Notes: generated by a model not told the origin, from the sequence alone. A stretch of DNA of 64,000 nucleotides from Morganella psychrotolerans (GCF_001676055.1 NZ_LZEX01000006.1:1-64000), one strand, 5' to 3'. Positions 3,837-60,369 are shown, counted from the stretch's first letter. Numbers and translations: made by a program.

Positions 3837-5147
3837 ATGAAAACACAGGCACTGACAGTCGCCATGAACGGCGATGTGGTAGGCACACTGTATCGGGATG
3901 GTACGGGTGCTATGTCATTCGAATACACGCCGGAATGGCTGTCTGAGCCCGGTTCCCGAGCTATTTCATTATCATTGCCCCTTCAGCACAACAGAATCAG
4001 GGGTAAGGAAGTATTTAATTTCTTCAGTAACCTGCTGCCGGATTCAGAGGTGATTATTGCCAGGATGCAGGCACGGTTCCATGTTGATACAACTCACCCG
4101 TTTGATCTGCTGGCAAGTGTCGGGCGTGACTGCGTGGGCGCAATTCAGTTGTATCCGTCGGGCAGTGACATTCCGTCTGTCATGGAAACACGGGCTGAGC
4201 CGCTGGATGATCATCAGATTGAAACACTGCTTGATGGCTATCAGACGGCACCTTTAGGGATGGAAGAAGGCGCTGATTTCCGGATTTCTTTAGCCGGAGC
4301 TCAGGAAAAAACAGCACTGCTCTGGTATCAGAACTGCTGGCAGCGACCACAAGGCAGTACACCTACCAGTCATATTTTTAAGCTCCCGATTGGGCGGATA
4401 GAACAGAATAATATCGACCTGCGGGAAAGCTGCGAAAATGAATGGCTGTGTTTGCGTATAGCCAAAGCATTTGGATTCCCGGCGGCTGATGCTGAATTAG
4501 CCGTATTTGGTCAGAAAAAGGTACTGATCGTCAGGCGCTTTGATCGGAAGTGGTCAGAGAATGGCTGGCTGATGCGGTTGCCTCAAGAGGATTTTTGCCA
4601 GGCTCTGGGAGTATCTCCGGCACTGAAATATGAGTCACATGGCGGTCCGGGAATAGCGGATGCAATGAATCTGTTGTTGGGCTCCCGCCTTGCCACACAA
4701 GACCGTGAATTATTTTTTAAATCACAGATTCTGTTCTGGATGCTGGCTGCAATTGATGGTCACGGGAAGAATTTCAGCCTGTTTATCGAGCCCGAAACAT
4801 CGTTCCGGATGACACCGCTTTATGATGTGATGTCTGCATTTCCTATTTTTGGCAGCAGGAGTATTCCGCTTAAAAAAGCCAAAATGGCAATGGCGTTATA
4901 CGGGAAAAATAAGCAGTATAATTTTGCGATGATACAGCCCCGGCATTTTATCAGTACCGCCGCACAAGTCGGATTTCCTCAGGATATTGCCCGTAAACTT
5001 ATGCTGGAAATGGCCTCTTACACAGGCACGGTGATCTCCACTGTAGCCACAGAGTTACCGGCTGATTTTCCGCAACACATCAGTGGCGCCATTTTCAAAG
5101 GGTTATCCGGGCAGGCTGCTAAAATCGTTAAATGGGTGCAAAATTAA
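3837..5147 (+). CDS. hipA: HipA serine/threonine-protein kinase toxin
   Basis: The 436-aa protein aligns along its full length with E. coli HipA (FNFFSNLLPDS, GAQEKTALL, RLPQEDFCQA, KYESHGGPGIA, DGHGKNFSLF). Confidence 0.95.
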   Translation: MKTQALTVAMNGDVVGTLYRDGTGAMSFEYTPEWLSEPGSRAISLSLPLQHNRIRGKEVFNFFSNLLPDSEVIIARMQARFHVDTTHPFDLLASVGRDCVGAIQLYPSGSDIPSVMETRAEPLDDHQIETLLDGYQTAPLGMEEGADFRISLAGAQEKTALLWYQNCWQRPQGSTPTSHIFKLPIGRIEQNNIDLRESCENEWLCLRIAKAFGFPAADAELAVFGQKKVLIVRRFDRKWSENGWLMRLPQEDFCQALGVSPALKYESHGGPGIADAMNLLLGSRLATQDRELFFKSQILFWMLAAIDGHGKNFSLFIEPETSFRMTPLYDVMSAFPIFGSRSIPLKKAKMAMALYGKNKQYNFAMIQPRHFISTAAQVGFPQDIARKLMLEMASYTGTVISTVATELPADFPQHISGAIFKGLSGQAAKIVKWVQN

Positions 5148-5656: not shown

Positions 5657-6146
5657 AGAGTACATGGTTTAATTATTAACCACTTGGCAGTAAAGCAATA
5701 TCACCTCCGGATAGTCCGGCTATTATATCCACTATGAATATAGTGCATAAAATATACTGATGAAGAATGAATATAATGAAAACAGGCAGATTGTTCATAT
5801 CGTTATTGATGCTATATCCGAAGATACTACCCTTTAAATAATTTCTCGGTATAGATACAGATTCCATCTGAATACGCTAATTCTGAATTCTTAATACAAA
5901 TCCCCATCCCAAAAAACTCAATCACCCGATCTACTCCGGAAACCTTCAAAACCCCAAATACAGTTGCTGATACAAATCATTAGCCACCTAATTCCGGGTA
6001 TTTCCTGGCTTTGCGGCAACGTTGCCTTTTTTAGCCATTTTCATGAAACGTAAACCCGCTTGAACCCGTCATCCGTTACCCCTACGTTTATACGCGTAAA
6101 ACCTGCTGTCAGTGACAGCCGCCAATGTTTCAATATCAATAAGATA

Positions 6147-6270
6147 TATACCCAACGTCATTCAAGTTGCAGGCAGGCGGCAAGCTCCGACCGCCGGGGA
6201 GCATACTGGTATGTGACCCGGCGGGTATCGTTCCGCCAACGAACCTGCTGTTTGAATGAATAAGGGTATA
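6147..6270. repeat. MITE-like repeat, copy 1 (~124 bp). It has imperfect terminal inverted repeats TATACCCAACGTCATTCAAG...CTGNTGTTTGAATGAATAAGGGTATA.
   Basis: It is about 85% identical to the copy at 47650-47775. A partial 5' end is also present at 41382-41408. Confidence 0.6.
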
Positions 6271-6772
6271 AGTGACCTGCAAGAAACGCCTTCGGGTGGC
6301 CGCAATACTCTTCCGTAATCCGGAAGAAACACCGTTAAAACCGAATCTCAGTGTCTGATATGTGCAGTTGACTGCGCTTTGCTATGCCTCAAGGGCATCT
6401 GCAAGCGCCTGTCCTGCTGCGCAGTGTTTAAGGCGTCACTTTTACGCCGCCGCACAGACTACTCTCAGCCCCTGAGATACACCGCTTACACAATCCGTCA
6501 TGCCTCTGACACCACAGTCAGCGTCTGATAAATCACCGGAAAGGAGACCACAACCACACTGAACCGATACCGGGAACGGGCTGCTCAGCCCGTGGGGATA
6601 TCCGCTCACGGACAGCCAAAGGCGAAAGCTGCACCCGTGCGGTACTGCGTGACGATATGAAAGCAATGGGATTTGATGTCTCCAAAAAGTTTTCCCGCTG
6701 GCTGGATAAGCTGGAAAAAGACAATCTGATCACATTGCGTGGCGAGGAAATTATCCCGCTGCCGTATCAGAC

Positions 6773-6990
6773 CAAAGTGGGGGACTAAACGGGGGAATGG
6801 TGGGGGAAGCCATCCGGAGCACCATAAAAACCGGTGTTTTCCCCACTTCGCAGTTATATATAGAACCTAAGTGGGGGCGATGCTGTAATTTCATAATAAA
6901 CATGCAGTTACGTTAAATTCCAAAAATGAGGTGGGGGAAGAAGTGGCACCCAGCTATGTGGGGGGCGAAGTGGGGGACGTTCTCACGTTT
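6773..6990. repeat. iteron-like array. It has at least 7 copies of RRGTGGGGG(A/C), one of them inverted, within ~220 bp, followed by an AT-rich tract (7080-7400).
   Basis: Copies are AAGTGGGGGA (6774), GGTGGGGGAAG (6799), inverted CCCCACTTCG (6843), AAGTGGGGGCG (6871), GGTGGGGGAAGAAGTGG (6929) and TGTGGGGGGCGAAGTGGGGGAC (6957-6978). The spacing and the neighbouring AT-rich DNA resemble a replication origin. Confidence 0.55.
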
Positions 6991-7558
6991 TTTCCCTGGC
7001 AGGCGCAGTTAAAACCTCGCTGATTTACAGACAACGCGTCAGTGCCGGTCATCTCAAATTTATAGTTGAGCCAGATATTTTTGATTGAAATTTTTCAGTG
7101 CCTGGGTATTTTATATTAGATTCGTAACGTAGCCGTACTAATCACCATGGATGAGATAATATTGATCGATACCATTTTTTTTTATTTATAAGCGCATTGA
7201 TTTTCTGGCAATTATTGTTTTTTCTCTGCTTGCACTTTGGCTTTCATCCATTTCATCAGGACGAATTTTAAGGCTTGCATTATTTTTGTTAGCGATACTA
7301 ATTATTACCCCTTATATTTTTGCCGCTGCTTATGTATTACTTATAATGTCCGTAAGCCTGATGTTTGCATATAACTAAAAATATACACACATCAATATTG
7401 CGCTTCTGATAGTTTATCTGCCGCTCTACCGCATCCCGTAACCACATAGCTACTTAGTCGTGCTGTATCCAATCTATCTACCCACACTAACAAATTTGCG
7501 CTCAGTCAGGTACCTGACAAAAACGATCACATCCGAAGGTTGTTTTTTATGCATGCAT

Positions 7559-7599
7559 TTGACGATTTATAAATCATGATTTACTATAAACGTAAATCA
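7559..7599 (+). promoter_or_regulatory. sigma70-like promoter (TTGACG-17-TACTAT) overlapped by a perfect 8-bp inverted repeat TGATTTAC-N7-GTAAATCA. This is a probable autoregulatory operator of the Xre-type antitoxin gene.
   Basis: Sequence inspection; it sits about 40 bp upstream of the ATG at 7637. Confidence 0.45.
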
Positions 7600-9261: not shown

Positions 9262-10521
9262 TTATCCGATCTCAAACTCATACGGCACCACAAACTCCCG
9301 GCTGACTGCATCCAGGTAATCACCCCACCATTGCATTATCAGTTTTCGTTCCACAATGTGTTCGGCTTTGTGAATATAGGCGGCGCGGACGGCATTGCGC
9401 TCCTGGTGGCTCATCTGCCGCTCTATCGCATCCCGTGACCATTTTCCTGATTCAATCAGTGCGCTGCACGCCATGGTGCGAAAACCATGACCGCACAGCT
9501 CCTTAGCAGTGTCGTATCCCATCGTCCGCAGGGCATTGTTCACCGTGTTCTCACTCATCGGTTTTATCAGGCTATGGTCGCCCGGGAAGAGCAGCTCGCC
9601 CTCTCCGCTTATTGTCCTGATTTCTGCCAGAACGGCCAGTGTCTGGCGCGACAGCGGCACAATATGCTCTGACTGCATTTTTGCACCACGATAGGAGAAT
9701 TTCACACCGGGAATCGGCGTACGCTCTGCCGGAATTATCCAGATGGCGCGTTCTGTGTCGAATTCAGACCAGCGGGCAAGACGGATTTCACTGGAGCGCG
9801 AAAACGTCAGCAGCGTAAACTGTATCGCCAGTTTGGTTAACCGGCGGCCGTTGTAATAATCCAGCTTTGTCAGCAGCTCCGGCAGCCGTTCCAGCCGCAG
9901 CGCCGGGCGGTGGGTCACACGCGGCGGCATCAGTGCTCCGGCCATGTCCTTCGCAGGATTGCGATCAATCACGCCGCACTGAACCGCATATCCCATGATA
10001 TCCGTGATCCGCTGCTTCAGCCGCGAGGCCAGCTCCAGACGATCATTCGCCTCTACAATCCGCAGCGGTACCAGTAAATCTTTGGTTTTCAGTTCCGCAA
10101 CATGCCGCTGACCTATCGCCGGGAGAATATGCTTTTCCATATCGCGCCAGATACGGTTAGCGTGCGTCTCTGACCAGCGCCGCCGTCTGAGCATCTGCTG
10201 CGACCATTCTCGCGCCATTTTCTCAAAGGTATTCAGCGCATCCTCTTCGGCTTCCTTCTCCGCGATACGCTTCTGCTTCGGGTGAATACCATCCAGTATC
10301 ATCAGACGGGCTTCATCGCGTTTATCACGGGCGCGTGACAGTGAAACCAGCGGATATGCGCCGAATGCTATCCGGCTCTCTTTGCCGTTGTATGCAAACT
10401 TAAAATACCAGCGCTTTGTACCAACCGGATTTACCTGAAGATAAAGGCCGTACTCGTCGGCCAGTTTGTACATCTTTTTACCAGGTTTTGCGTTCCTTGC
10501 TGCCATGTCACTTAATGCCAT
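9262..10521 (-). CDS. int: P4-type tyrosine integrase/recombinase, full length
   Basis: The 419-aa protein has a DUF4102 arm-binding N-terminus (MALSDMAARNAKPGKKMYKLAD...) and a catalytic C-terminal domain. It lies 1.9 kb from tRNA-Leu on the same strand. Confidence 0.95.
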   Translation of the reverse strand: MALSDMAARNAKPGKKMYKLADEYGLYLQVNPVGTKRWYFKFAYNGKESRIAFGAYPLVSLSRARDKRDEARLMILDGIHPKQKRIAEKEAEEDALNTFEKMAREWSQQMLRRRRWSETHANRIWRDMEKHILPAIGQRHVAELKTKDLLVPLRIVEANDRLELASRLKQRITDIMGYAVQCGVIDRNPAKDMAGALMPPRVTHRPALRLERLPELLTKLDYYNGRRLTKLAIQFTLLTFSRSSEIRLARWSEFDTERAIWIIPAERTPIPGVKFSYRGAKMQSEHIVPLSRQTLAVLAEIRTISGEGELLFPGDHSLIKPMSENTVNNALRTMGYDTAKELCGHGFRTMACSALIESGKWSRDAIERQMSHQERNAVRAAYIHKAEHIVERKLIMQWWGDYLDAVSREFVVPYEFEIG

Positions 10522-10971
10522 AAGTCCGGGTCACTCCTTTGTCGAATTGGTTTATCGCATCGTGACTTTTACGTACTCCGGGAACAACAAAGAAATATAT
10601 TCACAAAGTTGAACATTTTAATAAGCAGGTGACATAGGGGTTCATCACTGTGTGGACAACCAAAAACAGTGCAGAATAACGAAACAGGCTGAATTGCCGG
10701 TTGGTATAATTTGAGGGGAAAATTTAATTCGTTGTTTTTATTTGAAAAGATAAATAGTGATATTTTTTATCGGGGTATACAGGTGGCGGTATATATCTAG
10801 GTGAGATATACATGTGATTTATTGGTACTGACTTACCCCTCACTGCATTACTCTGCCATGAGGGTATAACGAGTGAACTACGATAAGAGTAATGAAAATA
10901 TGAAGTTTATTTAAAATATTTCTTTTATGAACATCACCGGAACCACCTGATACACAGGTGGCCAGCTAATA

Positions 10972-11707
10972 TTACCAATTTATATTAAAGATGTATCCTT
11001 CCAGCACAAGGGTAATAATTACAATAAATAATACAACCATTCCGCCAACTCCGAATGTCTTAAATCTACATTTCTGCCCACACTTAAATATAAAAAAGAA
11101 GAAACCAGTTTGGTTTTTATTCGCTAATGCATAGGCTAACTCAATAAAAGAAGATATGTGTATTAAAATAATGGAAATACTTATCAATATTGCAGATGAT
11201 ATTATAGAAAGAGAAAGATTCTTCCCATGTCCATTTAATTTCGCCCAGAATTTACTGGCAGAATCAACCTCCCTGGCAACATTAAGAATATCCTGAGGAA
11301 TTAGCCCATTGACTTTTCCATTTAATGAAAAAATTATCACTGCCAATACACCCATTAATAACCATCTTATAACATCAACACGTTCGGCTTCCTTGTTAGT
11401 AAATAAAATTAATAATCCAATAAATGCTAATACGGGTGACGTTACAGCTCCCCATGTTAATACAGAATATACTTGTTCATAATAACTAAAAAAAAAGCCA
11501 TGCTAAGAGACTGACTATGAATATTACTGCAACGGCACTGCCTACAACGATAGGATTGCCATCACTATCTGTTGATTTTTTGTGATTATTATTGATGGTT
11601 TTGTTAATTACTTGGGTGTTTTGAATATTGTAGCCACCACTGTTACTCTGAACAACGTTAATATTATCTGTGTTATTCTTGATGTTTATATCTGCAAATC
11701 TTCCCAT
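10972..11707 (-). pseudogene. Asn-rich membrane protein of unknown function, given as two ORFs of 73 and 127 aa. The frames fuse into ~245 aa if the A9 run at 11488-11496 were A8.
   Basis: Manual translation shows an open frame linking the two ORFs across the homopolymer. It has an Asn-rich N-terminus and at least 4 hydrophobic helices. Confidence 0.4.
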
Positions 11708-12373
11708 ATTTTTCTATTCCATCTAAGTGGATGACAATAATGAAATACATTTATGCCGTACTAATTATACGAAACACATACCTGTGATGTTACCTTCGAT
11801 ATTAAATAAACACAAAGCATGCCTATTTTTACAAAACAATCAATGAGTTAAAAATAATAAAATGATTAGAACACTAAAAAATCACTCATTAACTACCTTT
11901 ATTAGTAGTCAATCTGGTAACTCATTTTTAGTGAATATAATCTATTAAGGATATCGGAACAATAAATTAAAAGCTCATCAGAGCTAATAATCTAGCTGTA
12001 TATCTTTATGCATCCATGTAACCTGTTTTCTACTCTGAGTTCAATGTCACCAACGCTTCATGCCACTGGTTCCGGATGTTACTTGGCTAGCATGACTATA
12101 TATCCCCAAAGTTTTTAATCCGTATGGACGAAAATATCTAAAAGTAGATGGTTCTTTTTACCTGAATATTTATAACACCAACACCGGGTCAAAAAACCGC
12201 GTCGCAAAGTTGACCCCGTCAAAACCGTTTTTTTGCCCGGATGACGCCCGGACAGCAACAGACCTACCGAAGCGCGTTACACGAACCGGTAATTGGAAAT
12301 TAAAATGTTATTTTACATAAACTTACAAACAAGAAAGGCGGCTAAAAACAGCCGGATAGCGAATTTCAGGCAC

Positions 12374-12396
12374 AAAAAAAGCCACCTCGCGGTAGC
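12374..12396 (-). terminator. rho-independent terminator downstream of tRNA-Leu (stem GCTACC-GCGA-GGTGGC plus T7), supplied by the island
   Basis: Hairpin plus U-run 18 nt past the tRNA 3' end. Confidence 0.45.
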
Positions 12397-12413
12397 TTGA
12401 TTTCACTTAAGAA

Positions 12414-12495
12414 TGCCGAAGGCCGGAATCGAACCGGCACGCCCTAAAGCGGTTGATTTTGAATCAACTGCGTCTACCAATTCCGCCACTCCGGC
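12414..12495 (-). tRNA. leuX: tRNA-Leu (anticodon CAA), the leuX homologue. Its 3' end is reconstituted from island sequence and no CCA is encoded (the 3' trailer is TTC).
   Basis: It is 82 nt and matches E. coli leuX (GCCGGAGTGGCGGAATTGGTAGACGCAGTTGATTCAAAATCAACC...GTGCCGGTTCGATTCCGGCCTTCGGCA). The anticodon loop is TTCAAAA. Confidence 0.9.
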
Positions 12496-12523
12496 ACTGA
12501 AGTGTGTTCTCGATAACGGCGTT

Positions 12524-12904: not shown

Positions 12905-14128
12905 ATGAGTAAATTACACCGTCATATTGTGCGTCTGCTGCCTTTTTCATTACTGGCCATTGCGCTCTCCGCCTGTTCCTCACAGCCTGCGAAGCAAGCC
13001 GTTTCGCCCGCAGAACGCCCGCCTCTGGACTGGTCCATTATTGATAACAGTACAACACCCCTGAAGCTGGCACCGCAACTTGTAGATGAAGCCGGAGAGA
13101 AAATTTTCTCAGAAACAGATGCCCGCGGTATGTTTATGGTGGTGATTGATAACAACGAAATTTTTCACCGCAGCTATGGTGAGACCCGTCCGGGAAATGG
13201 TGTCAAACCACGGACAGATTCGCTGATCCGTATTGCATCCGTCAGTAAACTGATGACCAGCGAAGTGCTGGTAAAAATGGCGGATGACGGGCTGGTGAAT
13301 CTGAACGATCCGCTGCAAAAATACACTTACGGGCAGACAAAAGTGCCGGCTTATAACGGCAAGCCAATCCGCCTGTTTCATCTGGCGAGTCACACCAGTA
13401 TTCTGCCGCGCGAGCAGCCCGGCGGGAAATGGGGACGTCCGGTGTTTACCTGGCCAAGCCGCGATCAGCGCTGGACATGGCTGAAAACAACAAAACTGAC
13501 TGCCCAGCCGGGAACAGAAGCTGCTTATTCCAATATTGCGTATGACTTACTGGCAGATGCACTCGAAAAAGCCGGAAAACGCCCTTATCCTGAGCTGTTC
13601 AGACAATATGTGACACAGCCTGCGGGTATGAAAGATACGACTTACAATCCGTCTTCCGCTCAGTGTAAGCGCCTGATGGTCGGTTTCAAACCAAGTGATT
13701 GTTACAGCACACTGGCAGCAGTCGGCAGTGGCGGGGTTTACTCTACACCGGCTGATATGCAGAAATGGATGCAGGGATTTCTCTCATCCGGACGTTCAGC
13801 ACGCAAAGCAACGGCTTCCAAAGAACAGACTATCTATTTCAAACGCGGCCATCTTAATGAAATAAAAGGGATGGATGTTGCAGGTAGTGCAGATGGTCTG
13901 GGGCTTGGTTGGGTGTATCTGGCACCTGTCGGGGATATCCCGGCTATTTACCAGAAAACCGGTGGCGGTGGTGGCTTTAATACCTATATGGCTATGATCC
14001 CGGAGAAAAATGTCGGTATCTTTGTGGTAATGACCCGTAAAGACGGCAGTAAATTCAGCCCGTTACCGAATGGTGTCAATGATTTGGTACGCTCTCTGGC
14101 GGATTTACATACCCGTGATTTTCTGTAA
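12905..14128 (+). CDS. ampH: AmpH-like penicillin-binding protein / class C beta-lactamase-fold serine hydrolase lipoprotein
   Basis: The 407-aa protein has a lipobox (LSAC), the SVSKLMTSE (SxxK) motif, and full-length similarity to E. coli AmpH. Confidence 0.85.
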   Translation: MSKLHRHIVRLLPFSLLAIALSACSSQPAKQAVSPAERPPLDWSIIDNSTTPLKLAPQLVDEAGEKIFSETDARGMFMVVIDNNEIFHRSYGETRPGNGVKPRTDSLIRIASVSKLMTSEVLVKMADDGLVNLNDPLQKYTYGQTKVPAYNGKPIRLFHLASHTSILPREQPGGKWGRPVFTWPSRDQRWTWLKTTKLTAQPGTEAAYSNIAYDLLADALEKAGKRPYPELFRQYVTQPAGMKDTTYNPSSAQCKRLMVGFKPSDCYSTLAAVGSGGVYSTPADMQKWMQGFLSSGRSARKATASKEQTIYFKRGHLNEIKGMDVAGSADGLGLGWVYLAPVGDIPAIYQKTGGGGGFNTYMAMIPEKNVGIFVVMTRKDGSKFSPLPNGVNDLVRSLADLHTRDFL

Positions 14129-14150
14129 TACCTGAGTAAAAATGCCCGCT

Positions 14151-14954
14151 TCAGCAGCGGGCATGTTCCAGTACCGTTTTCATTAAAAAAGCATCAAGCG
14201 GCACGCTGTCACGATGCGATGATTTACCCGGAGAGTGTTCCGCGGTTTCTGCCAGCACATCCTGTATCAGTTTATCGATAGCCGGACGCCGTGCACCATA
14301 CAAACTTTCACCGGCTGATTTCTTCAGAGTCACAAGCGCGTTAATTTCATCACGGACTGTATCGTCAGTTACTGTGCCATCCACCAGCGTTTCAAATGCC
14401 ATCGGCGGCAGCCCTTTGCCGGCGGCTATCCAGCGTAGTGCCATTACCGGTCGCAATACATAAAAATACTTTTTCAGCCGGACCTGCTCTGCCAGTAAAT
14501 GCTCTTGCGTGTTGCGTTTTGCCATCGAAAGATAGTGCCAGCGCGCTTTATGTGAGGAATAAAACTGTGCTGCCAGCTCCGTTATTTCCCTGGTGAATGT
14601 TTCATCCTGATAATATATTACCGGAGAGCTGAGCCACTCAATCAGTGCGGGGTTAGAGTTTCTCAGCAGTTTCAGTGCTTTGGATAACTCCCAGCCCGCC
14701 ACATCCAGTTCATCATCTATCGGTTTTTCTATGACATCCCGCTTGCGATCAAGTGCGAGATACCAATCCGGCTGATGCACATAGATAAAACGCACATCAT
14801 AATCACTGTCCGGTGAGGCAAATCCCCATCCGCGACTACCTGATTCACAGGCGTACAACACTTTCACATGATGTGTTTTCTCTATCTCTGCCAATGTTTT
14901 TTTTATCCGCTCCCGCATTACGGCGCAAACGGCTTCATCATCTTTATCCGTCAT
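14151..14954 (-). CDS. Pol-beta superfamily nucleotidyltransferase (GS-X9-DxD motif ESGSRGWGFASPDSDYDVRF), last gene of the rtcB operon
   Basis: The 267-aa protein has a 4-nt gap to rtcB. This NTase family is often encoded next to RNA-repair genes. Confidence 0.75.
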   Translation of the reverse strand: MTDKDDEAVCAVMRERIKKTLAEIEKTHHVKVLYACESGSRGWGFASPDSDYDVRFIYVHQPDWYLALDRKRDVIEKPIDDELDVAGWELSKALKLLRNSNPALIEWLSSPVIYYQDETFTREITELAAQFYSSHKARWHYLSMAKRNTQEHLLAEQVRLKKYFYVLRPVMALRWIAAGKGLPPMAFETLVDGTVTDDTVRDEINALVTLKKSAGESLYGARRPAIDKLIQDVLAETAEHSPGKSSHRDSVPLDAFLMKTVLEHARC

Positions 14955-14958
14955 TTTT

Positions 14959-16185
14959 CTATCCTTTCACACACACTACCTGACGCAGTGTATGAACAAT
15001 TTCAACCAGGGATGACTGTGCGGCCATCACAGCATCAATATCTTTGTAAGCCATCGGGATCTCATCGATCACATCACTGTCTTTACGGCATTCCACATGG
15101 GCGGTGGCCTGTTTCTGGTCTGCGACTGAGAAGCGTTTTTTTGCCTCGGTACGGCTCATTACACGACCCGCTCCGTGGCTGCATGAGCAGAAACTCTCTT
15201 CATTTCCCAACCCGCGCACAATATAGCTTTTGGCACCCATAGAGCCCGGGATAATTCCCATCTGCCCTTTACGGGCGGATACCGCCCCTTTACGTGTAAC
15301 CAGGATTTCCTCACCGAAATGCTGTTCTTTCTGCACATAGTTATGATGGCAATTCACCGCTTCCTGCTGTGTGGTAAAAGGCCTGGTGATTTCACGGGAC
15401 AAGGCTTCCAGCACCCGGTGCATCATCACTTCCCGGTTATGGCGGGCAAAATCCTGTGCCCAGCCGACTGCTTCCATATAATCATTAAAATACACACTTC
15501 CCTCTTCAAAATACGCAAGATCACGATCCGGCAGATTGGCAATATGTGTCTGCATATCTTTCTGTGCCAGCGAGATAAACAAGTTTCCGATAGCATTACC
15601 GACCCCGCGCGAACCGCTGTGTAACATCACCCACACGAAACTGCTTTCATCCAGGCACAGTTCAATAAAATGATTCCCTGTGCCGAGTGTTCCCAGATGC
15701 TTATAGTTATTGGTATTACGTAACGCAGGATATTTATCGCAGATACGTTTAAACCCGGCATCCAGATGCATCCAGTGGCTGTCCACAATGTCCGGTGTAT
15801 CACGCCAGCTTCCTTTATCCCGTCCGTGACGCTGAGTGGTTCGTCCGTGAGGAACCGCCGCTTCAATGGCAAAACGGATATTTTGCAGATTGTCCGGCAG
15901 ATCGGTTGCCGTCAGTGATGTTTTCACTGCAATCATTCCGCAACCGATATCCACCCCGACAGCTGCCGGGATAATCGCACCTTTGGTCGGGATCACGCTG
16001 CCGATAGTTGATCCTTTCCCGACATGCACATCCGGCATCACGGCAAGATGCTTAAAAATAAACGGCATTTTTGCGGTGTTCTGCAACTGAATAACCGCTT
16101 TCGGATCCACCGGAACACCATTGGTCCACAATTTTACCGGCGCACTGTTTTCCTGAATTAATTCATTGAAACCATTACTGAACAT
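14959..16185 (-). CDS. rtcB: RtcB RNA 3'-phosphate/2',3'-cyclic phosphate ligase
   Basis: The 408-aa protein is about 80% identical by eye to E. coli RtcB along its whole length. Confidence 0.95.
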   Translation of the reverse strand: MFSNGFNELIQENSAPVKLWTNGVPVDPKAVIQLQNTAKMPFIFKHLAVMPDVHVGKGSTIGSVIPTKGAIIPAAVGVDIGCGMIAVKTSLTATDLPDNLQNIRFAIEAAVPHGRTTQRHGRDKGSWRDTPDIVDSHWMHLDAGFKRICDKYPALRNTNNYKHLGTLGTGNHFIELCLDESSFVWVMLHSGSRGVGNAIGNLFISLAQKDMQTHIANLPDRDLAYFEEGSVYFNDYMEAVGWAQDFARHNREVMMHRVLEALSREITRPFTTQQEAVNCHHNYVQKEQHFGEEILVTRKGAVSARKGQMGIIPGSMGAKSYIVRGLGNEESFCSCSHGAGRVMSRTEAKKRFSVADQKQATAHVECRKDSDVIDEIPMAYKDIDAVMAAQSSLVEIVHTLRQVVCVKG

Positions 16186-17312
16186 TATTGAACATCCTTA
16201 ATTTTTACCAATCCGTTCATTACCTGATCCAGTCCGCCGTAAACAGAAATCTGATCGATACGATGTGCGATACTTTCCAGCATTTCCAGCTCTTTCAGCC
16301 GTAATGCCACCGGGTTATTTTCCATCACTTTCGCCGTATTGAGCAGCGAGCGTGTCGCAGCAGTCTCTTCACGACGACGGATAACATTGGCCTGAGCTGA
16401 TTTTTCAGCTTCAACGACCTGCGATAAAATAGTGCGCATTTCGCCCGGTAAAATAATATCTTTCACCCCGGCAGACGCAACTTCCAGCCCGAACGGAATG
16501 GTTGAATCTGCTATCTGTGCAAGCACCAGCTCATCAATTAACCGCTTGTTTTCCAACAATTCATCCAGAGTCCGGGTACCGACAACTTCGCGCAGCGCAA
16601 ACTGTAATTCACGATAGAGATGCTCTGCCGGCTTACTCAGCTGTGAAAATGCCTGTAAAATATCGGTATAGCGCCAGTTAGCGGATAAGTTAATCCGCAA
16701 TGTCACTTTATCGCGGGTCAGAATTTCCTGACCACCGACGTCCAGTGATTGCAAACGGGTGTCGATCACATCTGCTTCCGGCTTATGGTCCGTACACCAG
16801 TAACCGTAAGTGCCGGGTGCCAGCAATGAATCCACTTCGCCGTCAATTTTCAGTACGCCCGTATGCCATGCCGGGATCTGAACGATCAGCACAAGTTCTG
16901 ATCCCTTTACTTTCTGTTTTCCGCGGGTCAGGCGGGATAATAATGTGTCATCCACTCTAATATTTCCGGTTACCTGAGTCTCCGCCCGCAAGCTGTTACC
17001 CTTCTTCCAGTACAGACGACGACCGCCGGATGGTAAAATTTCTGTCAATGTATCATGCAGATACAAAAAGCCTGTTTCATCATCTGCCGGACAGAGATCA
17101 ACACAATATTCAGTTACCCATTGCGGATGATACTCGCGCAAGTGCTCCGCCAGTTTTGTATCGATCGGCGCGGCCCCCGGTTCAAAAGTTGTCACTGTCA
17201 GTTTATTGAACCAGTCATTAAGACGGTGCTCTCCTGCCGGTAAAATAGCCTGAAAATTCCCGTTTTTTTCAACTAATGCGATTGTTCCCTGGGCAATTGT
17301 TATTTTTTTCAT
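16185..17312 (-). CDS. SPFH/band-7 (slipin/stomatin-like) domain protein with a ~170-aa N-terminal domain and no obvious TM helix. It is the first gene of the RtcR-controlled operon.
   Basis: The C-terminal half has the SPFH signature (KDIILPGEMRTILSQVVEAEKSAQANVIRRREETAATRSLLNTAKV...LRLKELEMLE). The stop overlaps the rtcB start (ATGA). Confidence 0.8.
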   Translation of the reverse strand: MKKITIAQGTIALVEKNGNFQAILPAGEHRLNDWFNKLTVTTFEPGAAPIDTKLAEHLREYHPQWVTEYCVDLCPADDETGFLYLHDTLTEILPSGGRRLYWKKGNSLRAETQVTGNIRVDDTLLSRLTRGKQKVKGSELVLIVQIPAWHTGVLKIDGEVDSLLAPGTYGYWCTDHKPEADVIDTRLQSLDVGGQEILTRDKVTLRINLSANWRYTDILQAFSQLSKPAEHLYRELQFALREVVGTRTLDELLENKRLIDELVLAQIADSTIPFGLEVASAGVKDIILPGEMRTILSQVVEAEKSAQANVIRRREETAATRSLLNTAKVMENNPVALRLKELEMLESIAHRIDQISVYGGLDQVMNGLVKIKDVQ

Positions 17313-17490
17313 TATTTTTCCTTTTCATTTTATGAGCCACGACCGGACACAAATACAGTATCGCGGGGGAAACCACAGAGGACCGGAGGCTGTCTGTCGT
17401 TCTGCCCGCCACCCGGTATGACAGCCGGGCCGTGGTGTGCGGCTCTGCGTTCAGCCGCGTGAAAACTGCTTTATGTTTACTGCATAAGGA

Positions 17491-17528
17491 GGTGATTCAG
17501 GATTCGAACCTGATAAAGCCATATCACC
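17491..17528 (-). ncRNA. tRNA-like minihelix in the rtc operon leader: GGTGAT-ATGGCTTTA-[TCAGG TTCGAAT CCTGA]-ATCACC (acceptor-like stem plus a perfect T-arm). Possible Y-RNA-like or tRNA-like element.
   Basis: A GGTTCGAATCC T-loop consensus flanked by 5-bp and 6-bp stems, inside a 330-nt untranslated leader between the sigma54 promoter and the first ORF. Confidence 0.3.
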
Positions 17529-17639
17529 GGGAACTGCGCGGACAAAACGGAATACAGATAATGAAACGGCATTGCCGCCACCTCTGCACCGGTCGGGCGT
17601 AAAGCCCAGACAATTTCTGTCAGTGCGGTACAGGTAATA

Positions 17640-17657
17640 TTGCGATAAGCGTGCCAG
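17640..17657 (-). promoter_or_regulatory. sigma54 (-24/-12) promoter TGGCACG-CTTA-TCGCA, driving the SPFH-rtcB-NTase operon
   Basis: One mismatch to TGGCACG-N4-TTGCW. It is divergent from the rtcR start about 170 bp away. Confidence 0.6.
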
Positions 17658-17824
17658 TTTTATAAATTTCAAAAATATTTTTATAACATATTGATATTTA
17701 ACATATATTTATTTTTGTGATTTTATCCGTGCCATTGGGATATAAAATGACTTATGCTTATTACTATCCTGTAATATCGTGTTTTATCCTGAAAAATAAA
17801 TTCCGGTGATTGTGAAAATCAATA

Positions 17825-19403
17825 ATGAAAAAGAAAGTTGTGATAGGGGTTCTGGGTACGGTCTTAGACCGGCGGGGAAAAAGAGCTAACCGCTGGAATA
17901 AGTGGCGGCCGAGTGTCGGATTGTGCCAGCAGCCGGATCTGAATATTGATCGCTTTGAACTTATTTATCAGGCCGATAATTTACAGACAGCGGAACGGGT
18001 AAAAGAGGATATCGGGCAGGTATCATCACAAACAGAAGTGATGCTGCATAAGGTCAATATTGCCGACCCGTGGGACTTTGAACAGGTTTATACCGCGCTC
18101 CGGGATTTCGCCGCACACTATCCGTTCGATACAGAAAATGAAGAGTATCTGGTGCATATCACCACCGGGACGCATGTGGTTCAGATTTGCTGGTTCCTGC
18201 TGACTGAAGCCAGTTATCTGCCCGCCCGGCTTATTCAGACCGCCCCCCGCCATGAATCGGGAGATACCGGCCCCGGGGGTGTGTATACCATTATTGACCT
18301 CGACCTCCGTCGCTATACACAGATAACAGGGCGCTTTCAGAAAGAGCAACAAGCTCAGGTCGCTTTCCTGAAGTCCGGTATCGCCACCCGTAATGCCGCG
18401 TTCAACAAGACAATCGATAAAATTGAACGCGTTGCCCTGCGCTCTGCCGCACCGGTTCTGCTGACCGGACCGACAGGTGCCGGGAAATCATTTCTCGCAA
18501 AACGGATATATGAGCTGCGCCGTAACCGTCATCAGGTAAAAGGTCGCTTTGTGGAAGTCAATTGTGCCACACTGCGCGGCGACAACGCGATGTCCGCACT
18601 GTTCGGTCATGTAAAAGGGGCATTTACCGGGGCTATTCAGGCGCGCGGTGGATTACTGAAAGAGGCTGACGGCGGGATACTGTTTCTCGATGAAATAGCT
18701 GAACTGGGAGCCGATGAGCAGGCCATGCTGCTCAAAGCCATTGAAGAAAAACGTTTTTTTCCCTTACGGATCTGACTATGAGACAGAAAGTGATTTTGCC
18801 CTGATAGCAGGAACTCACCGTAATCTGGCACAAAGGGTCAGTGAAGGGCATTTCCGGGAAGATTTATACGCCCGTATCAATATGTGGACATTTACCCTGC
18901 CCGGATTGGCACATCGGCGGGAAGATATCGAGCCGAATGTCGATTATGAGCTGGCAAAATACAGCCGTGATCAGCAAACAAGCGTCCGCTTTGATAGCGA
19001 TGCCCGGCAAATTTATCTGGCTTTTTCCTGTTCACCGCAGGCTCTGTGGCGCGGTAATTTTCGTGAACTGGGAGCATCTGTCACCCGCATGGCGACCTTT
19101 GCAGAAAGCGGACGAATTACAACGGCGCTGGTGCAGGAAGAGATTGAGAGACTGGAAAGTCAGTGGGAAGGTCTTCAGGAAAACAGCAATCTGCCCGCCG
19201 GGATAGGCGACATTGATCTGTTCGACCGCCGGCAGCTGGAAACCGTGATTGCGGTCTGCCGCCGCTCCCGGACATTGTCAGATGCCGGACGCGCTCTGTT
19301 TGCTGTCTCCCGTCAGCAGAAGAAGCAACCTAATGATGCTGACCGGCTGCGTAAATACCTCGCCCGGTTTAATCTCGACTGGGAACAGATAACAAATAAC
19401 TGA
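17825..19403 (+). pseudogene. rtcR: RtcR sigma54-dependent transcriptional activator (CARF + AAA+ + HTH), split into 316-aa and 229-aa ORFs by a +1 shift in a T7 run (18754-18760)
   Basis: Both halves align with E. coli RtcR (GAFTGA-like VKGAFTGA, ...EEKRFFP | YGSD...DADRLRKYLARF). The true sequence appears to be T6. Confidence 0.85.
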
Positions 19404-19471
19404 AACAACAACGCCGGTCAGTAAATCCTGACCGGCGTTGTTTTATTGCTGTTGCGCAATGACAGATCCCG

Positions 19472-21941: not shown

Positions 21942-23453
21942 ATGGAGTTTAGTGTAAAAAGCGGCAGTCCGGAAAAGCAACGCAGTGCTTGTATTGTGGT
22001 CGGCATTTTCGAACCGCGTCGTCTGTCCCCGGTTGTGGAACAGCTCGATAAAATCAGCGACGGCTACATCAGTGCTCTGCTGCGCCGCGGCGAGCTGGAG
22101 GGCAAGGTCGGGCAGTCTCTGCTTCTGCACCATGTCCCGAATGTCCTGTCCGAGCGCATCCTGTTAATCGGCTGCGGAAAAGAACGCGAGCTGGATGAGC
22201 GCCAGTACAAACAGATTATTCAGAAAACCATCAGCACCCTGAACGAAACCGGGTCGATGGAAGCGGTCTGTTTTTTGACTGAGTTGCATGTCAAAGGACG
22301 CAACAATTACTGGAAAGTAAGACAAGCTGTTGAAACAGCAAAAGAATCTCTCTATGTCTTTGATCAGCTGAAAAGCAATAAAACCGAATTACGCCGCCCG
22401 CTGCGTAAACTGGTCTTCAATGTCCCTACCCGCCGCGAACTGCCTGCCGGTGAGAAAGCGATCAGCCATGGTCTGGCCATTTCTGCCGGTATCAAAGCGG
22501 CAAAAGATCTGGCGAATATGCCGCCGAACATCTGTAACGCGGCTTACCTCGCGTCGCAGGCGCGCCAGCTGGCAGACAATCACTCATCTGTCCTCAGCAC
22601 CCGGGTTATCGGTGAAGAGCAGATGAAAGAGCTGGGAATGCTGGCGTATCTGGCGGTCGGCCAGGGGTCACGCAATGAATCACTGATGTCGGTGATTGAG
22701 TATAAAGGTAATCCGGATCCGGAAGCACGACCGATTGTATTAGTCGGAAAAGGGCTGACGTTCGACTCCGGCGGTATTTCTATCAAACCAGCCGATGGCA
22801 TGGATGAGATGAAATATGACATGTGCGGCGCGGCAACTGTCTACGGCGTAATGCGGATGGTGGCTGAACTGAGTCTGCCGCTCAATGTGGTCGGGATCCT
22901 GGCGGGATGTGAAAACATGCCGGGCAGCAATGCCTATCGTCCGGGGGATATCCTCACCACCATGTCAGGTCAGACTGTCGAAGTGCTTAATACGGATGCA
23001 GAAGGCCGCCTGGTGCTGTGTGATGCGCTGACTTACGTGGAGCGTTTCGAGCCGGAAACCGTGATTGATATCGCGACCCTGACCGGTGCCTGTATGGTCG
23101 CACTGGGTAACCATTTCAGTGGTCTGATGGCAAATCACAATCCGCTGGCGCACGAGTTGCTGAATGCGTCTGAACAAGCCGGTGACCGCGCATGGCGGCT
23201 GCCGCTGGCAGATGAGTTCTACGAGCAAATCGAGTCGAACTTTGCGGATCTTGCCAATACCGGCGGGCGTCTGGGTGGCGCGATTACCGCAGGTTGCTTC
23301 CTGTCACGCTTTACAACGCGCTATAATTGGGCGCACCTGGATATTGCCGGTACGGCATGGCGTTCAGGAAAAAATAAAGGCGCAACAGGTCGTCCGGTTG
23401 CACTGCTGGCACAATTCCTGTTAAATCGTGCGGGTATCAGCACCGACGACTGA
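21942..23453 (+). CDS. pepA: leucyl aminopeptidase / PepA (also a carAB and Xer cofactor)
   Basis: The 503-aa protein is near-identical to E. coli PepA. Confidence 0.95.
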
Positions 23454-53135: not shown

Positions 53136-53202
53136 AATAATATCCTTCTGGGTCTCTCACCCCGGCAGGGGCAAGCGATGAAATGGTCTCTTCAGATACA
53201 TC

Positions 53203-53258
53203 CTCGCGACTAATGACAGCCTTTTCCGTTTGCCGGAAAGCGCTGTCATTAGTCGCGC
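53203..53258 (-). promoter_or_regulatory. long stem-loop in the pnp leader (GCGACTAATGACAGC...GCTGTCATTAGTCGC), the RNase III autoregulatory processing site
   Basis: A 15-bp or longer perfect stem, conserved in enterobacterial rpsO-pnp intergenic regions. Confidence 0.55.
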
Positions 53259-53320
53259 GAATCGCTGTATTTAAAGAGTCGTTGTAAGCGGATAACAGCG
53301 GGATATACCGCTTTCAGAAG

Positions 53321-53347
53321 AAAAGGGGCCAACTTCGGCCCCTTTCC
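53321..53347 (-). terminator. rpsO terminator (GGGGCCGAAGTTGGCCCC + T-run)
   Basis: Hairpin plus U-run 3' of rpsO. Confidence 0.7.
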
Positions 53348-53363
53348 ACTGAAACTTGTCGAA

Positions 53364-53633
53364 TTAGCGACGCAGACCAAGACGCTGAAGAATCGAGGTG
53401 TAGCTGGCTAAATCTTTACGCTTCAGGTAGGTCAGCAGTTTACGACGCTGAGCAACCATACGCAGCAGACCACGACGGCTGTGGTGATCTTTTTTGTGCT
53501 CTGTGAAGTGACCTTGCAGATGGTTAATCTGTGCAGTCAGCAGCGCGATCTGAACTTCGCTTGAACCGGTGTCGTTTTCAGTACGACCAAAATCAGCGAT
53601 AATTTTCGCTGTTGCTTCAGTGCTTAGAGACAT
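53364..53633 (-). CDS. rpsO: 30S ribosomal protein S15
   Basis: The 89-aa protein ([12 protein letters not shown]...) matches S15. Confidence 0.95.
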
Positions 53634-53756
53634 AAAAAACTCCAATATACATTGATTGATAAACAAAATGAGTGCCGATCTCTAATTCAGCATCTCAAGG
53701 AAATTGCCGCACTATTCTACGCCGCAACGCACCCGAACGCAAGATGCGTCCGGTGC

Positions 53757-59940: not shown

Positions 59941-60143
59941 GACCACCCCCAGGACATAAAAAAAGGGCATAACGCCCAGTAGTTCTGTTGTTTTATAACA
60001 AAAAACCCCGAAATTTCGGGGCTTTAAGCAACAACTGGACCCTGTATACTTCTCACTTCTTAATCGCTTTTCCAAATCAGGGGATAACTTCAAAGAGTTG
60101 TTGATTTAATCAACCTAGGAAAAAACGATTCGTTTTTAAGAAG

Positions 60144-60220
<77 letters not shown>

Positions 60221-60277
60221 TTCGAAACGTGAAAAATTCTACGCCGATCACCTGCAAAACGCAAGCTTCAAACAAAA

Positions 60278-60369
60278 ATGGTGCCGAGGACGGGACTTGA
60301 ACCCGTACGCCTGTTTTGTAGGCACTACCACCTCAAGGTAGCGTGTATACCAATTTCACCACCTCGGCA
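60278..60369 (-). tRNA. leuU: tRNA-Leu (anticodon GAG)
   Basis: The sequence (GCCGAGGTGGTGAAATTGGTA...CCTTGAGGTGGTAG...GGGTTCAAGTCCCGTCCTCGGCACCA) is similar to E. coli leuU. The exact 5' end is accurate to within ±2 nt. Confidence 0.85.

Follow-up and report, generated by a model that had tools for sequence, protein, structure and literature searches.

The locus described here, from Morganella psychrotolerans, is a genuine RtcR/sigma-54-controlled RNA-repair operon without RtcA, situated in a 64-kb stretch of DNA that was analysed as a whole and is called the window. The operon runs on the minus strand from a sigma-54 promoter through the genes for an SPFH protein, RtcB and RlaP to a terminator, with rtcR divergent. 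With a probability of roughly 0.7, it represents the Enterobacterales form of the Band-7 (SPFH)/b7a-tRNA/RtcB/RlaP repair system, RtcR-controlled and RtcA-less, in which the tRNA-like RNA is reduced to a minihelix within a two-domain leader. The operon type is common in enterobacteria and, according to the accessible portions of the literature, had been catalogued in a comparative-genomic survey of 2016; for an operon that an initial annotation had presented as non-canonical, this is the main result.

The three open reading frames of that annotation were exact, at 16185-17312 (-) for the SPFH protein, 14959-16185 (-) for RtcB and 14151-14954 (-) for RlaP, and each is preceded by an AAGGA-type Shine-Dalgarno (SD) sequence. 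The divergent sigma-54 promoter, earlier placed at 17640-17657, was found as the -24/-12 element TGGCAC-N5-TCGCA at 17656-17641 (-), with a transcription start predicted near 17630 and approximately 325 nt between promoter and ATG. All 76 related leaders examined keep the element, equally spaced from rtcR, and promoter-like sites were at chance level (8 found, 8.2 expected). Regarding the gene junctions, the claimed 4-nt gap between RtcB and RlaP stands, whereas the SPFH stop and the RtcB start meet in TAATG, with a 1-nt overlap, and not in ATGA. The terminator scan placed the intrinsic terminator of the operon, a 9-bp GC-rich stem with a T-run, at 14142-14164 (-), where it overlaps the RlaP stop; the same segment also supplied the terminator half in a sub-threshold match to Trp_leader from Rfam. 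A bidirectional terminator hairpin with a 15-bp stem on both strands occupies the rtcR/lptG interval (19407-19442). The PADLOC defence models gave no matches.

The first gene encodes a soluble SPFH/Band-7 protein (stomatin-like, "slipin") of 375 aa, consisting of an N-terminal domain, the SPFH domain and long C-terminal helices. Pfam Band_7 covers aa 145-316 (E 4e-23), aa 183-375 match a PDB stomatin profile (E 9e-25), and the Foldseek matches of the structural model are stomatin, HflK/C, prohibitin, flotillin and erlin. The AF2 model, which is of moderate confidence (pLDDT 71.6), places helices at 290-330, 336-356 and 361-373, so that the family's succession of an alpha/beta domain and long oligomerising helices is predicted here. 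The SPFH fold proposed earlier is thus upheld by profile search and structure. The protein had also been called cytoplasmic-looking, and no transmembrane segment or membrane anchor was found in it, the best 19-residue Kyte-Doolittle mean being 1.17. An extra N-terminal domain is present as claimed, in the form of a beta-rich soluble domain, but it measures approximately 140 aa and not 170 aa. This domain is duplicated in some SPFH homologues.

It is highly improbable that the SPFH gene sits in the operon as a chance passenger, encoding for example a membrane-microdomain protein, with no role in RNA repair. The linkage is kept in Morganellaceae, Enterobacteriaceae, Erwiniaceae, Orbaceae, Neisseriaceae and Pseudomonas, in every case under control of the RtcR promoter and accompanied by RtcB, RlaP or both, the SPFH stop overlaps the RtcB start, and the protein is devoid of a membrane anchor. 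The passenger reading can point to PaFlo8, an SPFH gene published inside the Pseudomonas aeruginosa rtc locus (PMC13086221), the deletion of which left growth, virulence, motility, biofilm and oxidative stress unaffected; however, the published assays left out RNA damage.

The second gene encodes RtcB, the 3'-phosphate/5'-OH RNA ligase, with 408 aa; the assignment in the initial annotation was confirmed by Pfam RtcB (PF01139), which is matched over the full length (E 9e-133), and the protein is 72.6% identical to E. coli RtcB. The 267-aa nucleotidyltransferase, previously described only as Pol-beta-type, proved to be a full-length RlaP (PF10127, model positions 1-248 of 249, E 3.5e-94). It has the Pol-beta catalytic motif GS...DSDYD (GS...DxD), in ...CESGSRGWGFASPDSDYDVRF..., and is a predicted enzyme of Pol-beta fold; no RlaP relative was found in the PDB. 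RlaP stands for "RNA ligase-associating Pol-beta", a name that the accessible text of PMC12776372 credits to Burroughs and Aravind (2016). In 2025, it was characterised in vitro, where PaRlaP adds 1-2 NMP to RNA 3'-OH ends (PMC12776372), leaving a 3'-OH that is not directly usable by RtcB (PMC12776372, discussion). The earlier anatomy and the guess of an Rtc-type RNA damage-response module, composed of a scaffold and an end-modifying nucleotidyltransferase, were right. The reported absence of RtcA also held, since tblastn with the E. coli RtcA query found no match either in the 64 kb of the window or in any of the 80 related loci. In Salmonella, induction requires RtcA (PMC7790460). This requirement, with no RtcA seen here, was counted against the preferred reading, together with the RlaP 3'-OH product, which is not a direct RtcB substrate, and the frameshift in rtcR.

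Downstream of the promoter and ahead of the SPFH gene lies the most distinctive component of the locus, which the initial annotation did not contain: a conserved structured leader RNA of approximately 290 nt with two strongly covarying domains. The 5' domain (17481-17630, -) comprises a three-way junction (P1, a bulged P2 hairpin and a long, UU-bulged P3 hairpin) and, after it, a tRNA-like module. Its covariance model, CM R1, scores 102 bits on the window (E 3e-22) and finds a single match per locus in 73 loci and nothing elsewhere in 1.09 Mb. The 3' domain (17334-17461, -) is composed of a small hairpin and a second, long and irregular one in which GGCAGAA ... UUCCCC ... motifs are conserved, and it ends approximately 20 nt 5' of the SD. 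Although built from Enterobacteriaceae only, CM R2 gives 30.5 bits (E 8e-4) on the window and matches 46 further loci, once per locus and always directly 5' of the SPFH gene; in Pseudomonas and Gilliamella, weak matches fall where the domain is expected. The covariation counts lean towards structure because the alignments were fitted to the models, but slid-partner controls are far lower: 87.8% of cells are paired in the 5' domain against 38-48% in the controls, with both-side changes in 33 of 38 pairs, and 91.7% against 37-50% in the 3' domain, with both-side changes in 29 of 30 pairs. Neither domain has a family in Rfam 15; scans at E<=1 on 13.5-20 kb, at E<=10 on the leader alone and at gathering thresholds on the whole window returned matches at chance level only (Trp_leader terminator half, L2 leader and sul1). 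The P2 hairpin was considered as an anticodon-arm mimic and dropped because neither its loop length (4-8 nt) nor its sequence is conserved. A terminator-like match at 17584-17563 is not a terminator and corresponds to the P3 hairpin.

A tRNA-like acceptor/T-arm minihelix (GGUUCGAAUCC; 17491-17528, -), identified by its invariant T-arm, covariation and position, closes the 5' domain. Its layout is GGUGAU - AUGGCUUUA - UCAGG UUCGAAU CCUGA - AUCACC, then UCC; GGTTCGA.TCC is invariant across loci, and the T-stem and acceptor-like helices (helices 8 and 9) covary. The minihelix takes the position that cloverleaf tRNA-like genes called by ARAGORN hold in Gilliamella and Neisseria loci, and by this analogy, it may be a reduced b7a-tRNA. 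Both ARAGORN and the Rfam tRNA model called no tRNA in the leader of the window, and the RNA is not a cloverleaf; the equation with b7a-tRNA therefore rests on position and the shared T-arm.

T-boxes and RNase P dock tRNA elbows by means of T-loop motifs. The leader might act in cis as a 5'-UTR regulator and not as a trans-acting cofactor RNA. It could be an attenuator, an autoregulatory site bound by protein or a tRNA sensor of T-box type, in which the T-loop and the long hairpins would sense damaged or uncharged tRNA or the SPFH, RtcB or RlaP proteins and set translation or stability of the downstream mRNA. The RNA always lies on the same strand between the promoter and the first gene and stops shortly before the SD, and the terminator scan found no terminator that splits it from the operon genes. 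A cis-acting role is nevertheless unlikely, as the consensus structures give no alternative terminator/antiterminator or SD-sequestering pairing, and related loci have in this slot an entire tRNA-like gene, its CCA end encoded, that resembles an RNA processed to stand alone. In addition, the operon taken as precedent, rsr-yrlBA-rtcBA, gives rise to trans-acting Y RNAs (PMC4201824).

The divergent rtcR is split by a 1-nt insertion in a T7 homopolymer at 18754-18760 (+), and the +1 shift noted earlier in this run was confirmed by three-frame translation and by a conspecific T6. The 5' part (17825-18775, +) encodes the CARF/RtcR domain and the sigma-54 AAA+ domain up to two-thirds of its length (Pfam RtcR E 1e-83; Sigma54_activat E 7e-35; NCBIfam RNA_repair_RtcR positions 1-310 of 530), with 62% identity to E. 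coli RtcR aa 1-314, and its frame ends just past the T-run. The 3' part in the +1 frame (18714-19403, +) contains the end of the AAA+ domain, the lid and the HTH (NCBIfam RtcR positions 302-529 of 530, E 4e-93), with 60% identity to E. coli RtcR aa 304-525; combined, the fragments span positions 1-529 of 530. Removal of one T in silico restores ...EEKRFFPYGSD..., in agreement with the orthologues, and in another M. psychrotolerans genome (L084) the run is T6 and RtcR is intact, with 525 aa. The conspecific comparison was drawn from contigs encoding the protein; the scan of genome contigs gave no Morganella locus, with Providencia as its best locus (74%), and the contigs encoding the RlaP protein were only short ones, all without rtcR.

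Either this insertion silences the operon in the strain or it is an artefact of the assembly. The first case would make the locus a decaying, non-functional remnant with a real frameshift and a sigma-54 promoter deprived of its activator. This is conceivable but doubtful: T7 in place of T6 truncates RtcR within the AAA+ domain with loss of the HTH, and rtcR homopolymer frameshifts occur in two further assemblies (L008 and L068), but single-base homopolymer length errors are the commonest assembly artefact and rtcR is intact in the conspecific strain. Moreover, the window retains all three structural genes and the two RNA domains undamaged, and the structural proteins are identical or at least 97% identical in independent assemblies.

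Under the preferred reading as a Band-7/b7a-tRNA/RtcB/RlaP system, RtcR would respond to its ligand (PMC7790460), oligomerise and fire the sigma-54 promoter. As predicted from the sequence, a single transcript would start near 17630 and carry the structured leader and the translationally coupled SPFH, RtcB and RlaP genes up to 14142-14164. By analogy with rsr-yrlBA-rtcBA, the leader RNA would be excised, plausibly by tRNA-processing enzymes at the tRNA-like module, and would bind the SPFH protein. Judging from its fold, this protein may form a ring or cage via its C-terminal helices, as other SPFH proteins do, and because it has no membrane anchor, the assembly would be cytosolic and serve as an RNP scaffold for the enzymes. 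As established for homologues, RtcB would reseal 2',3'-cP/3'-P and 5'-OH ends, while RlaP would extend nibbled 3'-OH ends by one or two nucleotides, rendering over-trimmed tRNAs functional again. We infer that the genes are co-transcribed, that the leader is processed and that the RNA binds the SPFH protein.

A census of gene neighbourhoods covered 80 species-representative related loci. SPFH, RtcB and RlaP occur together under RtcR (RtcR|SPFH-RtcB-RlaP) in 37 of them, which makes the architecture of the window the commonest in its family; SPFH-RlaP was found in 19, SPFH-RtcB in 17 and RtcA in none. The novelty implied earlier is not supported. The available text of bioRxiv 10.1101/312249 names the 2016 survey as the source for Band-7 beside RtcB and for its predicted cognate RNA of tRNA-like kind (b7a-tRNA), and that text and the corresponding part of PMC12776372 already have Band-7/b7a-tRNA/RtcB catalogued and RlaP named, with PaFlo8 placed in the rtc locus by PMC13086221. 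The variant is therefore catalogued, but it is characterised only for RlaP in vitro and not for the SPFH protein or the RNA. The operon type is known on paper and little studied, and the locus bears on the role of a soluble SPFH protein in RNA repair, on the predicted b7a RNA and on the handover of the RlaP 3'-OH product to RtcB, a 3'-phosphate ligase. The analysis contributes two covariance models, calibrated and with precise coordinates, together with an alignment of 73 loci for a strongly covarying leader RNA missing from Rfam; it also shows the reduction of the tRNA-like part in enterobacteria and the consistent absence of RtcA from related loci, although induction in Salmonella needs it. 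Testable handles exist in tractable genera such as Klebsiella, Citrobacter, Enterobacter, Proteus and Providencia.

Among named systems, the Band-7/b7a-tRNA/RtcB and RlaP systems (Burroughs and Aravind, NAR 2016), as far as the accessible text describes them, share with the window a Band-7 gene directly upstream of RtcB, a frequent but not obligatory RlaP, RtcR/sigma-54 control and an RNA with tRNA features encoded beside the Band-7 gene. The window differs from the b7a-tRNA described there in having no cloverleaf, only an acceptor/T-arm minihelix inside an RNA of approximately 290 nt with two more covarying domains. The P. aeruginosa locus, rtcR | PA14_60630 (PaFlo8, SPFH)-rtcB-rlaP-rtcA, agrees with the window in the set and order of SPFH, RtcB and RlaP under RtcR (PMC13086221; PMC12776372) but keeps rtcA as its last gene, which is absent from the window and from all 80 related loci examined. 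E. coli rtcR | rtcBA shares the divergent RtcR, the sigma-54 promoter and RtcB; however, it has RtcA, contains neither SPFH nor RlaP, has an intergenic region of approximately 190 nt, and its locus (L081) matches neither leader RNA model.

Salmonella rsr-yrlBA-rtcBA is likewise RtcR-driven, with a putative ring scaffold, operon-derived tRNA-mimicking ncRNA(s) and RtcB (PMC4201824, PMC7790460), but its scaffold is TROVE/Ro60, whereas that of the window is SPFH, without RtcA. The RNA of the window has the normal order 5'-acceptor...T-arm...3'-acceptor, in contrast to the permuted T-AS-D order of YrlA (PMC4201824). Identity with YrlA/Y RNA was ruled out, as there is no Rsr, the helix order is different and the GNCGAA Ro-binding motif is absent; Pfam detected a TROVE domain in none of the three operon proteins, and no Rfam match pointed to a YrlA-type RNA.

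A more tentative reading, possible but held with less confidence than not, takes the leader as a distinct structured-RNA class, in which the 5' three-way junction and the 3' long hairpin would be the real partners of a cage-forming cytosolic SPFH protein. The tRNA-like part would then be an exchangeable insert, which Orbaceae and Neisseriaceae would carry as a full cloverleaf (variable anticodons of A34 type) and Enterobacterales as no more than an acceptor/T-arm minihelix, and the whole might be a bacterial vault-like RNP organising RtcB and RlaP, beyond what the accessible text attributes to the 2016 survey. In the eukaryotic vault (MVP, vault RNA and TEP1), MVP has N-terminal beta-rich repeats, an SPFH-like shoulder and a cap helix and builds a cage in the cytosol with which small RNAs associate; the full-length SPFH model, itself of moderate confidence, aligns with MVP over 431 columns (Foldseek E 2e-8).

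The operon is encoded on the minus strand, divergently from rtcR, and is composed of an SPFH/Band-7 protein of 375 aa (16185–17312; Pfam Band_7 at aa 145–316, E 4e-23), an RtcB of 408 aa (14959–16185; Pfam RtcB, E 9e-133; 72.6% identity to E. coli RtcB), and an RlaP nucleotidyltransferase of 267 aa (14151–14954; Pfam PF10127, E 3.5e-94 across the entire model). These are exactly matched by OBU09935.1 ("slipin family protein"), OBU09934.1 ("RtcB family protein"), and OBU09933.1 ("nucleotidyltransferase domain-containing protein"), respectively. ORF calling returned the same coordinates for the three genes as the initial annotation, whose 4-nt gap between RtcB and RlaP is also present, while the SPFH stop and RtcB start overlap by 1 nt in TAATG instead of the ATGA proposed there. 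The divergent sigma-54 promoter was found as a canonical −24/−12 element, TGGCAC-N5-TCGCA (17656–17641, minus strand); within the operon, the promoter scan gave promoter-like matches at chance level only, and a terminator scan placed a GC-rich hairpin followed by a T-run at 14164–14142 (minus strand). As read from the sequence, the unit runs from a single promoter through a structured leader and three coupled cistrons to a single terminator.

The operon is flanked by a class C (AmpC-like, PF00144) beta-lactamase gene (12905–14128, plus strand) and a tRNA-Leu(CAA) (12413–12496, minus strand). The 2 kb past this tRNA (10500–12500) has 30–37% GC and few long ORFs and may be an islet or remnant. 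Elsewhere in the window, Rfam Ysr276, a Yersinia antisense sRNA, matches at 22500–22694 (minus strand) with 127.8 bits, over the gathering score; it lies on the strand opposite the pepA CDS and may merely mirror pepA sequence conservation. Ordinary Rfam features at 53190–53698 and 59958–60368 are the SraG sRNA, the S15 leader (rpsO/pnp region), the rimP leader, tRNA-Met, and tRNA-Leu(GAG).

More than 7,900 proteins related to the SPFH protein were found in a large protein collection. A census of one genome per species yielded 80 loci with an SPFH homologue (51–74% identity) in Providencia, Xenorhabdus, Proteus, Erwinia, Enterobacter, Citrobacter, Klebsiella, Kluyvera, Hafnia, Brenneria, Lonsdalea, Gilliamella, Neisseria, one Pseudomonas, and others. 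The window's form, rtcR facing SPFH-RtcB-RlaP, occurs in 37 of the 80, which makes it the most frequent version of a widespread operon. SPFH-RtcB without RlaP was found in 17 loci, including Proteus, Gilliamella, and Neisseria, and SPFH-RlaP without RtcB in the operon in 19: the Kluyvera/Citrobacter/Klebsiella oxytoca group (related loci L020, L024, L033, L034, L036, L044, L049–L051, L058, and L069), Brenneria/Lonsdalea (L027, L035, L038, L040, L047, and L052), Hafnia (L043), and L065. The remainder are a few truncated or orphan cases. With E. coli RtcA as the tblastn query, no match was found in the 64-kb window, bearing out the absence of RtcA noted initially, or within 6 kb of any of the 80 loci. 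In Xenorhabdus, an ORF directly 3′ of RlaP, starting ...TSKFLSY(I/V)LRHQPE... (L012 from 9371; L064 from 9685; L067 from 9659), looks by its sequence like KptA/Tpt1 RNA 2′-phosphotransferase, another RNA-repair enzyme.

The initial annotation overlooked the structured stretch of approximately 325 nt between the promoter and the SPFH start codon, a long spacing that is conserved among related leaders. Almost all Enterobacterales leaders carry, 125–150 nt downstream of the promoter, the nearly invariant GGTTCGA(A)TCC, a tRNA T-loop signature. A covariance model of the 5′ domain (R1; 153 positions, 38 bp), built from 15 diverse leaders, matched once per locus in 73 loci, invariably between promoter and SPFH gene (17630–17481 in the window, minus strand; 102 bits), with zero further matches in 1.09 Mb and zero in the E. 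coli rtcBA locus. A model of the 3′ domain (R2; 112 positions, 30 bp), built from Enterobacteriaceae only, covers the rest of the leader in the window (17461–17334, minus strand; 30.5 bits, E about 8e-4) and 46 further loci; with filters off, the sole Pseudomonas and Gilliamella matches lay at the expected position (E 0.03–0.15). Paired cells made up 87.8% of the R1 alignment vs. 38–48% with partners slid along the alignment, with two-sided changes in 33 of 38 pairs and a covariation score of 0.459 vs. 0.07–0.13, and 91.7% of the R2 alignment vs. 37–50%, with two-sided changes in 29 of 30 pairs; such counts, from model-fitted alignments, are biased towards structure, but they still exceed the slid controls by a wide margin. 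Neither domain matched an Rfam 15 family. The leader RNA is present too in the 19 species with SPFH-RlaP loci, and the constant core of the system is the SPFH protein and the RNA, not the ligase.

The 5′ domain is a three-way junction of P1, P2 (a hairpin carrying a conserved 1-nt bulge), and P3 (a long hairpin with a conserved UU bulge flanked by CCGG...UUCCG), followed by a tRNA-like module in which an acceptor-like stem encloses a GG-containing linker and a 5-bp T-stem with a UUCGAAU loop. On the minus strand of the window, these are GGUGAU (17528–17523), the T-arm UCAGG-UUCGAAU-CCUGA (17513–17497), and AUCACC (17496–17491), followed by UCC. In Gilliamella and Neisseria leaders, ARAGORN finds a full cloverleaf with encoded CCA (L072 5624–5699; L078 177–251; L079 5638–5713; L080 5647–5722), to which R1 aligns only in the acceptor/T-arm part. 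Their anticodons vary by species (AUC, CGG, AGG, and AUU), and three of the four start with A34, unusual for genuine bacterial tRNAs. In the Neisseria locus L072, a second T-arm module lies immediately upstream of the cloverleaf gene. Neither ARAGORN nor the Rfam tRNA model called a tRNA in the leaders of the window and other Enterobacterales, and from sequence comparison it is concluded that the enterobacterial module is a probable reduced homologue of b7a-tRNA, the predicted tRNA-like RNA of Band-7/RtcB systems, retaining the acceptor/T-arm "top half" of about 11 stacked bp, often followed by ACC. It is through this half of a tRNA that RNase P, RNase Z, the CCA-adding enzyme, TruB, and TrmA recognise it. 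The main rival explanation, that the leader is a regulatory UTR acting in cis, is considered unlikely because no alternative-pairing logic was found in the leader and sister loci encode a stand-alone-looking tRNA.

The SPFH fold claimed for the 375-aa protein was recovered by both approaches: a 27-homologue profile matched archaeal and human stomatin in the PDB (E about 1e-24, aa 183–375), and Foldseek with the AlphaFold model (pLDDT 71.6) retrieved stomatin (E 6e-13), HflK/C, prohibitin, flotillin, erlin, and major vault protein. Because it is without a hydrophobic segment (top 19-residue Kyte–Doolittle mean of 1.17), the protein should be soluble, in contrast to classical family members. The extra N-terminal domain exists as claimed, but is about 140 aa rather than the ~170 aa given initially. 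In some lineages, it is tandemly duplicated, giving proteins of ~515–530 aa (L009–L011, L062, L064, L066–L068, L070, L072, L075, L077, and L079; SPFH gene at locus coordinates about 6001–7560).

The rtcR gene is read in two pieces on the plus strand (17825–18775 and 18714–19403) that jointly cover positions 1 to 529 of the NCBIfam RtcR model. The reported frameshift proved to be a single additional T in the run 18754–18760; the second M. psychrotolerans genome (GCA_965118675.1, L084) has T6 and an uninterrupted RtcR of 525 aa, with otherwise the same synteny (lptF-lptG, rtcR, SPFH-RtcB-RlaP, AmpC-like). The extra T implies a silent operon in this strain, unless it is a homopolymer error of the assembly. 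Frameshifts at homopolymer runs of rtcR occur in three independent assemblies at differing sites, the other two in or beside the Walker A region in P. stuartii NCTC11800 (L008, ~4840–4850) and X. vietnamensis (L068, ~4809–4815); these could be assembly errors, or the activator could have been inactivated repeatedly, possibly by phase variation.

In the favoured model, the leader RNA would be excised from the transcript, by analogy with YrlA and YrlB from rsr-yrlBA-rtcBA, and would bind a soluble SPFH oligomer that may scaffold RtcB and RlaP on damaged tRNA or rRNA. RtcB joins 3′-P/2′,3′-cP ends to 5′-OH ends, and the model faces the difficulty that the 3′-OH product of RlaP is not an RtcB substrate. 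SPFH-RlaP is moreover kept without adjacent RtcB in 19 species, and a locus without RtcA has no maker of the cyclic-phosphate ligand. In E. coli, the CARF domain of RtcR is bound by both RtcA and RtcB (PMC9650030), and RtcA is also required in Salmonella for RtcR-driven induction (PMC7790460).

Burroughs and Aravind in 2016 reportedly gave SPFH/Band-7 modules the role of scaffolds, together with "a novel tRNA-like molecule". The system, which our census finds to be common in Enterobacterales, was catalogued in that survey (Burroughs and Aravind, 2016), and Pseudomonas rtc loci have been published, so the arrangement is not novel as had been implied. The initial observation was accurate and its functional guess reasonable, but the "non-canonical" operon turns out to be typical of a known system; the remaining interest lies in the putative SPFH–RNA partnership and the two-domain leader RNA lacking an Rfam 15 counterpart. 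In P. aeruginosa and P. fluorescens, rtcR accompanies rtcB-rlaP-rtcA; Pseudomonas RlaP extends damaged RNAs at the 3′-OH by one or two NMPs and enables over-trimmed tRNA to be aminoacylated again (PMC12776372, December 2025 preprint). The P. aeruginosa rtc locus includes the gene for the SPFH protein PaFlo8; deleting that gene produced no phenotype in assays that did not address RNA damage (PMC13086221, 2026). These Pseudomonas loci contain rtcA, whereas the window is without it. Strictly defined, a b7a-tRNA "strongly resembles an authentic tRNA"; the acceptor/T-arm module of the window, where no tRNA is called, is a possible member by that definition. The duplicated N-terminal domain of some SPFH homologues recalls how major vault protein combines repeats with a shoulder.
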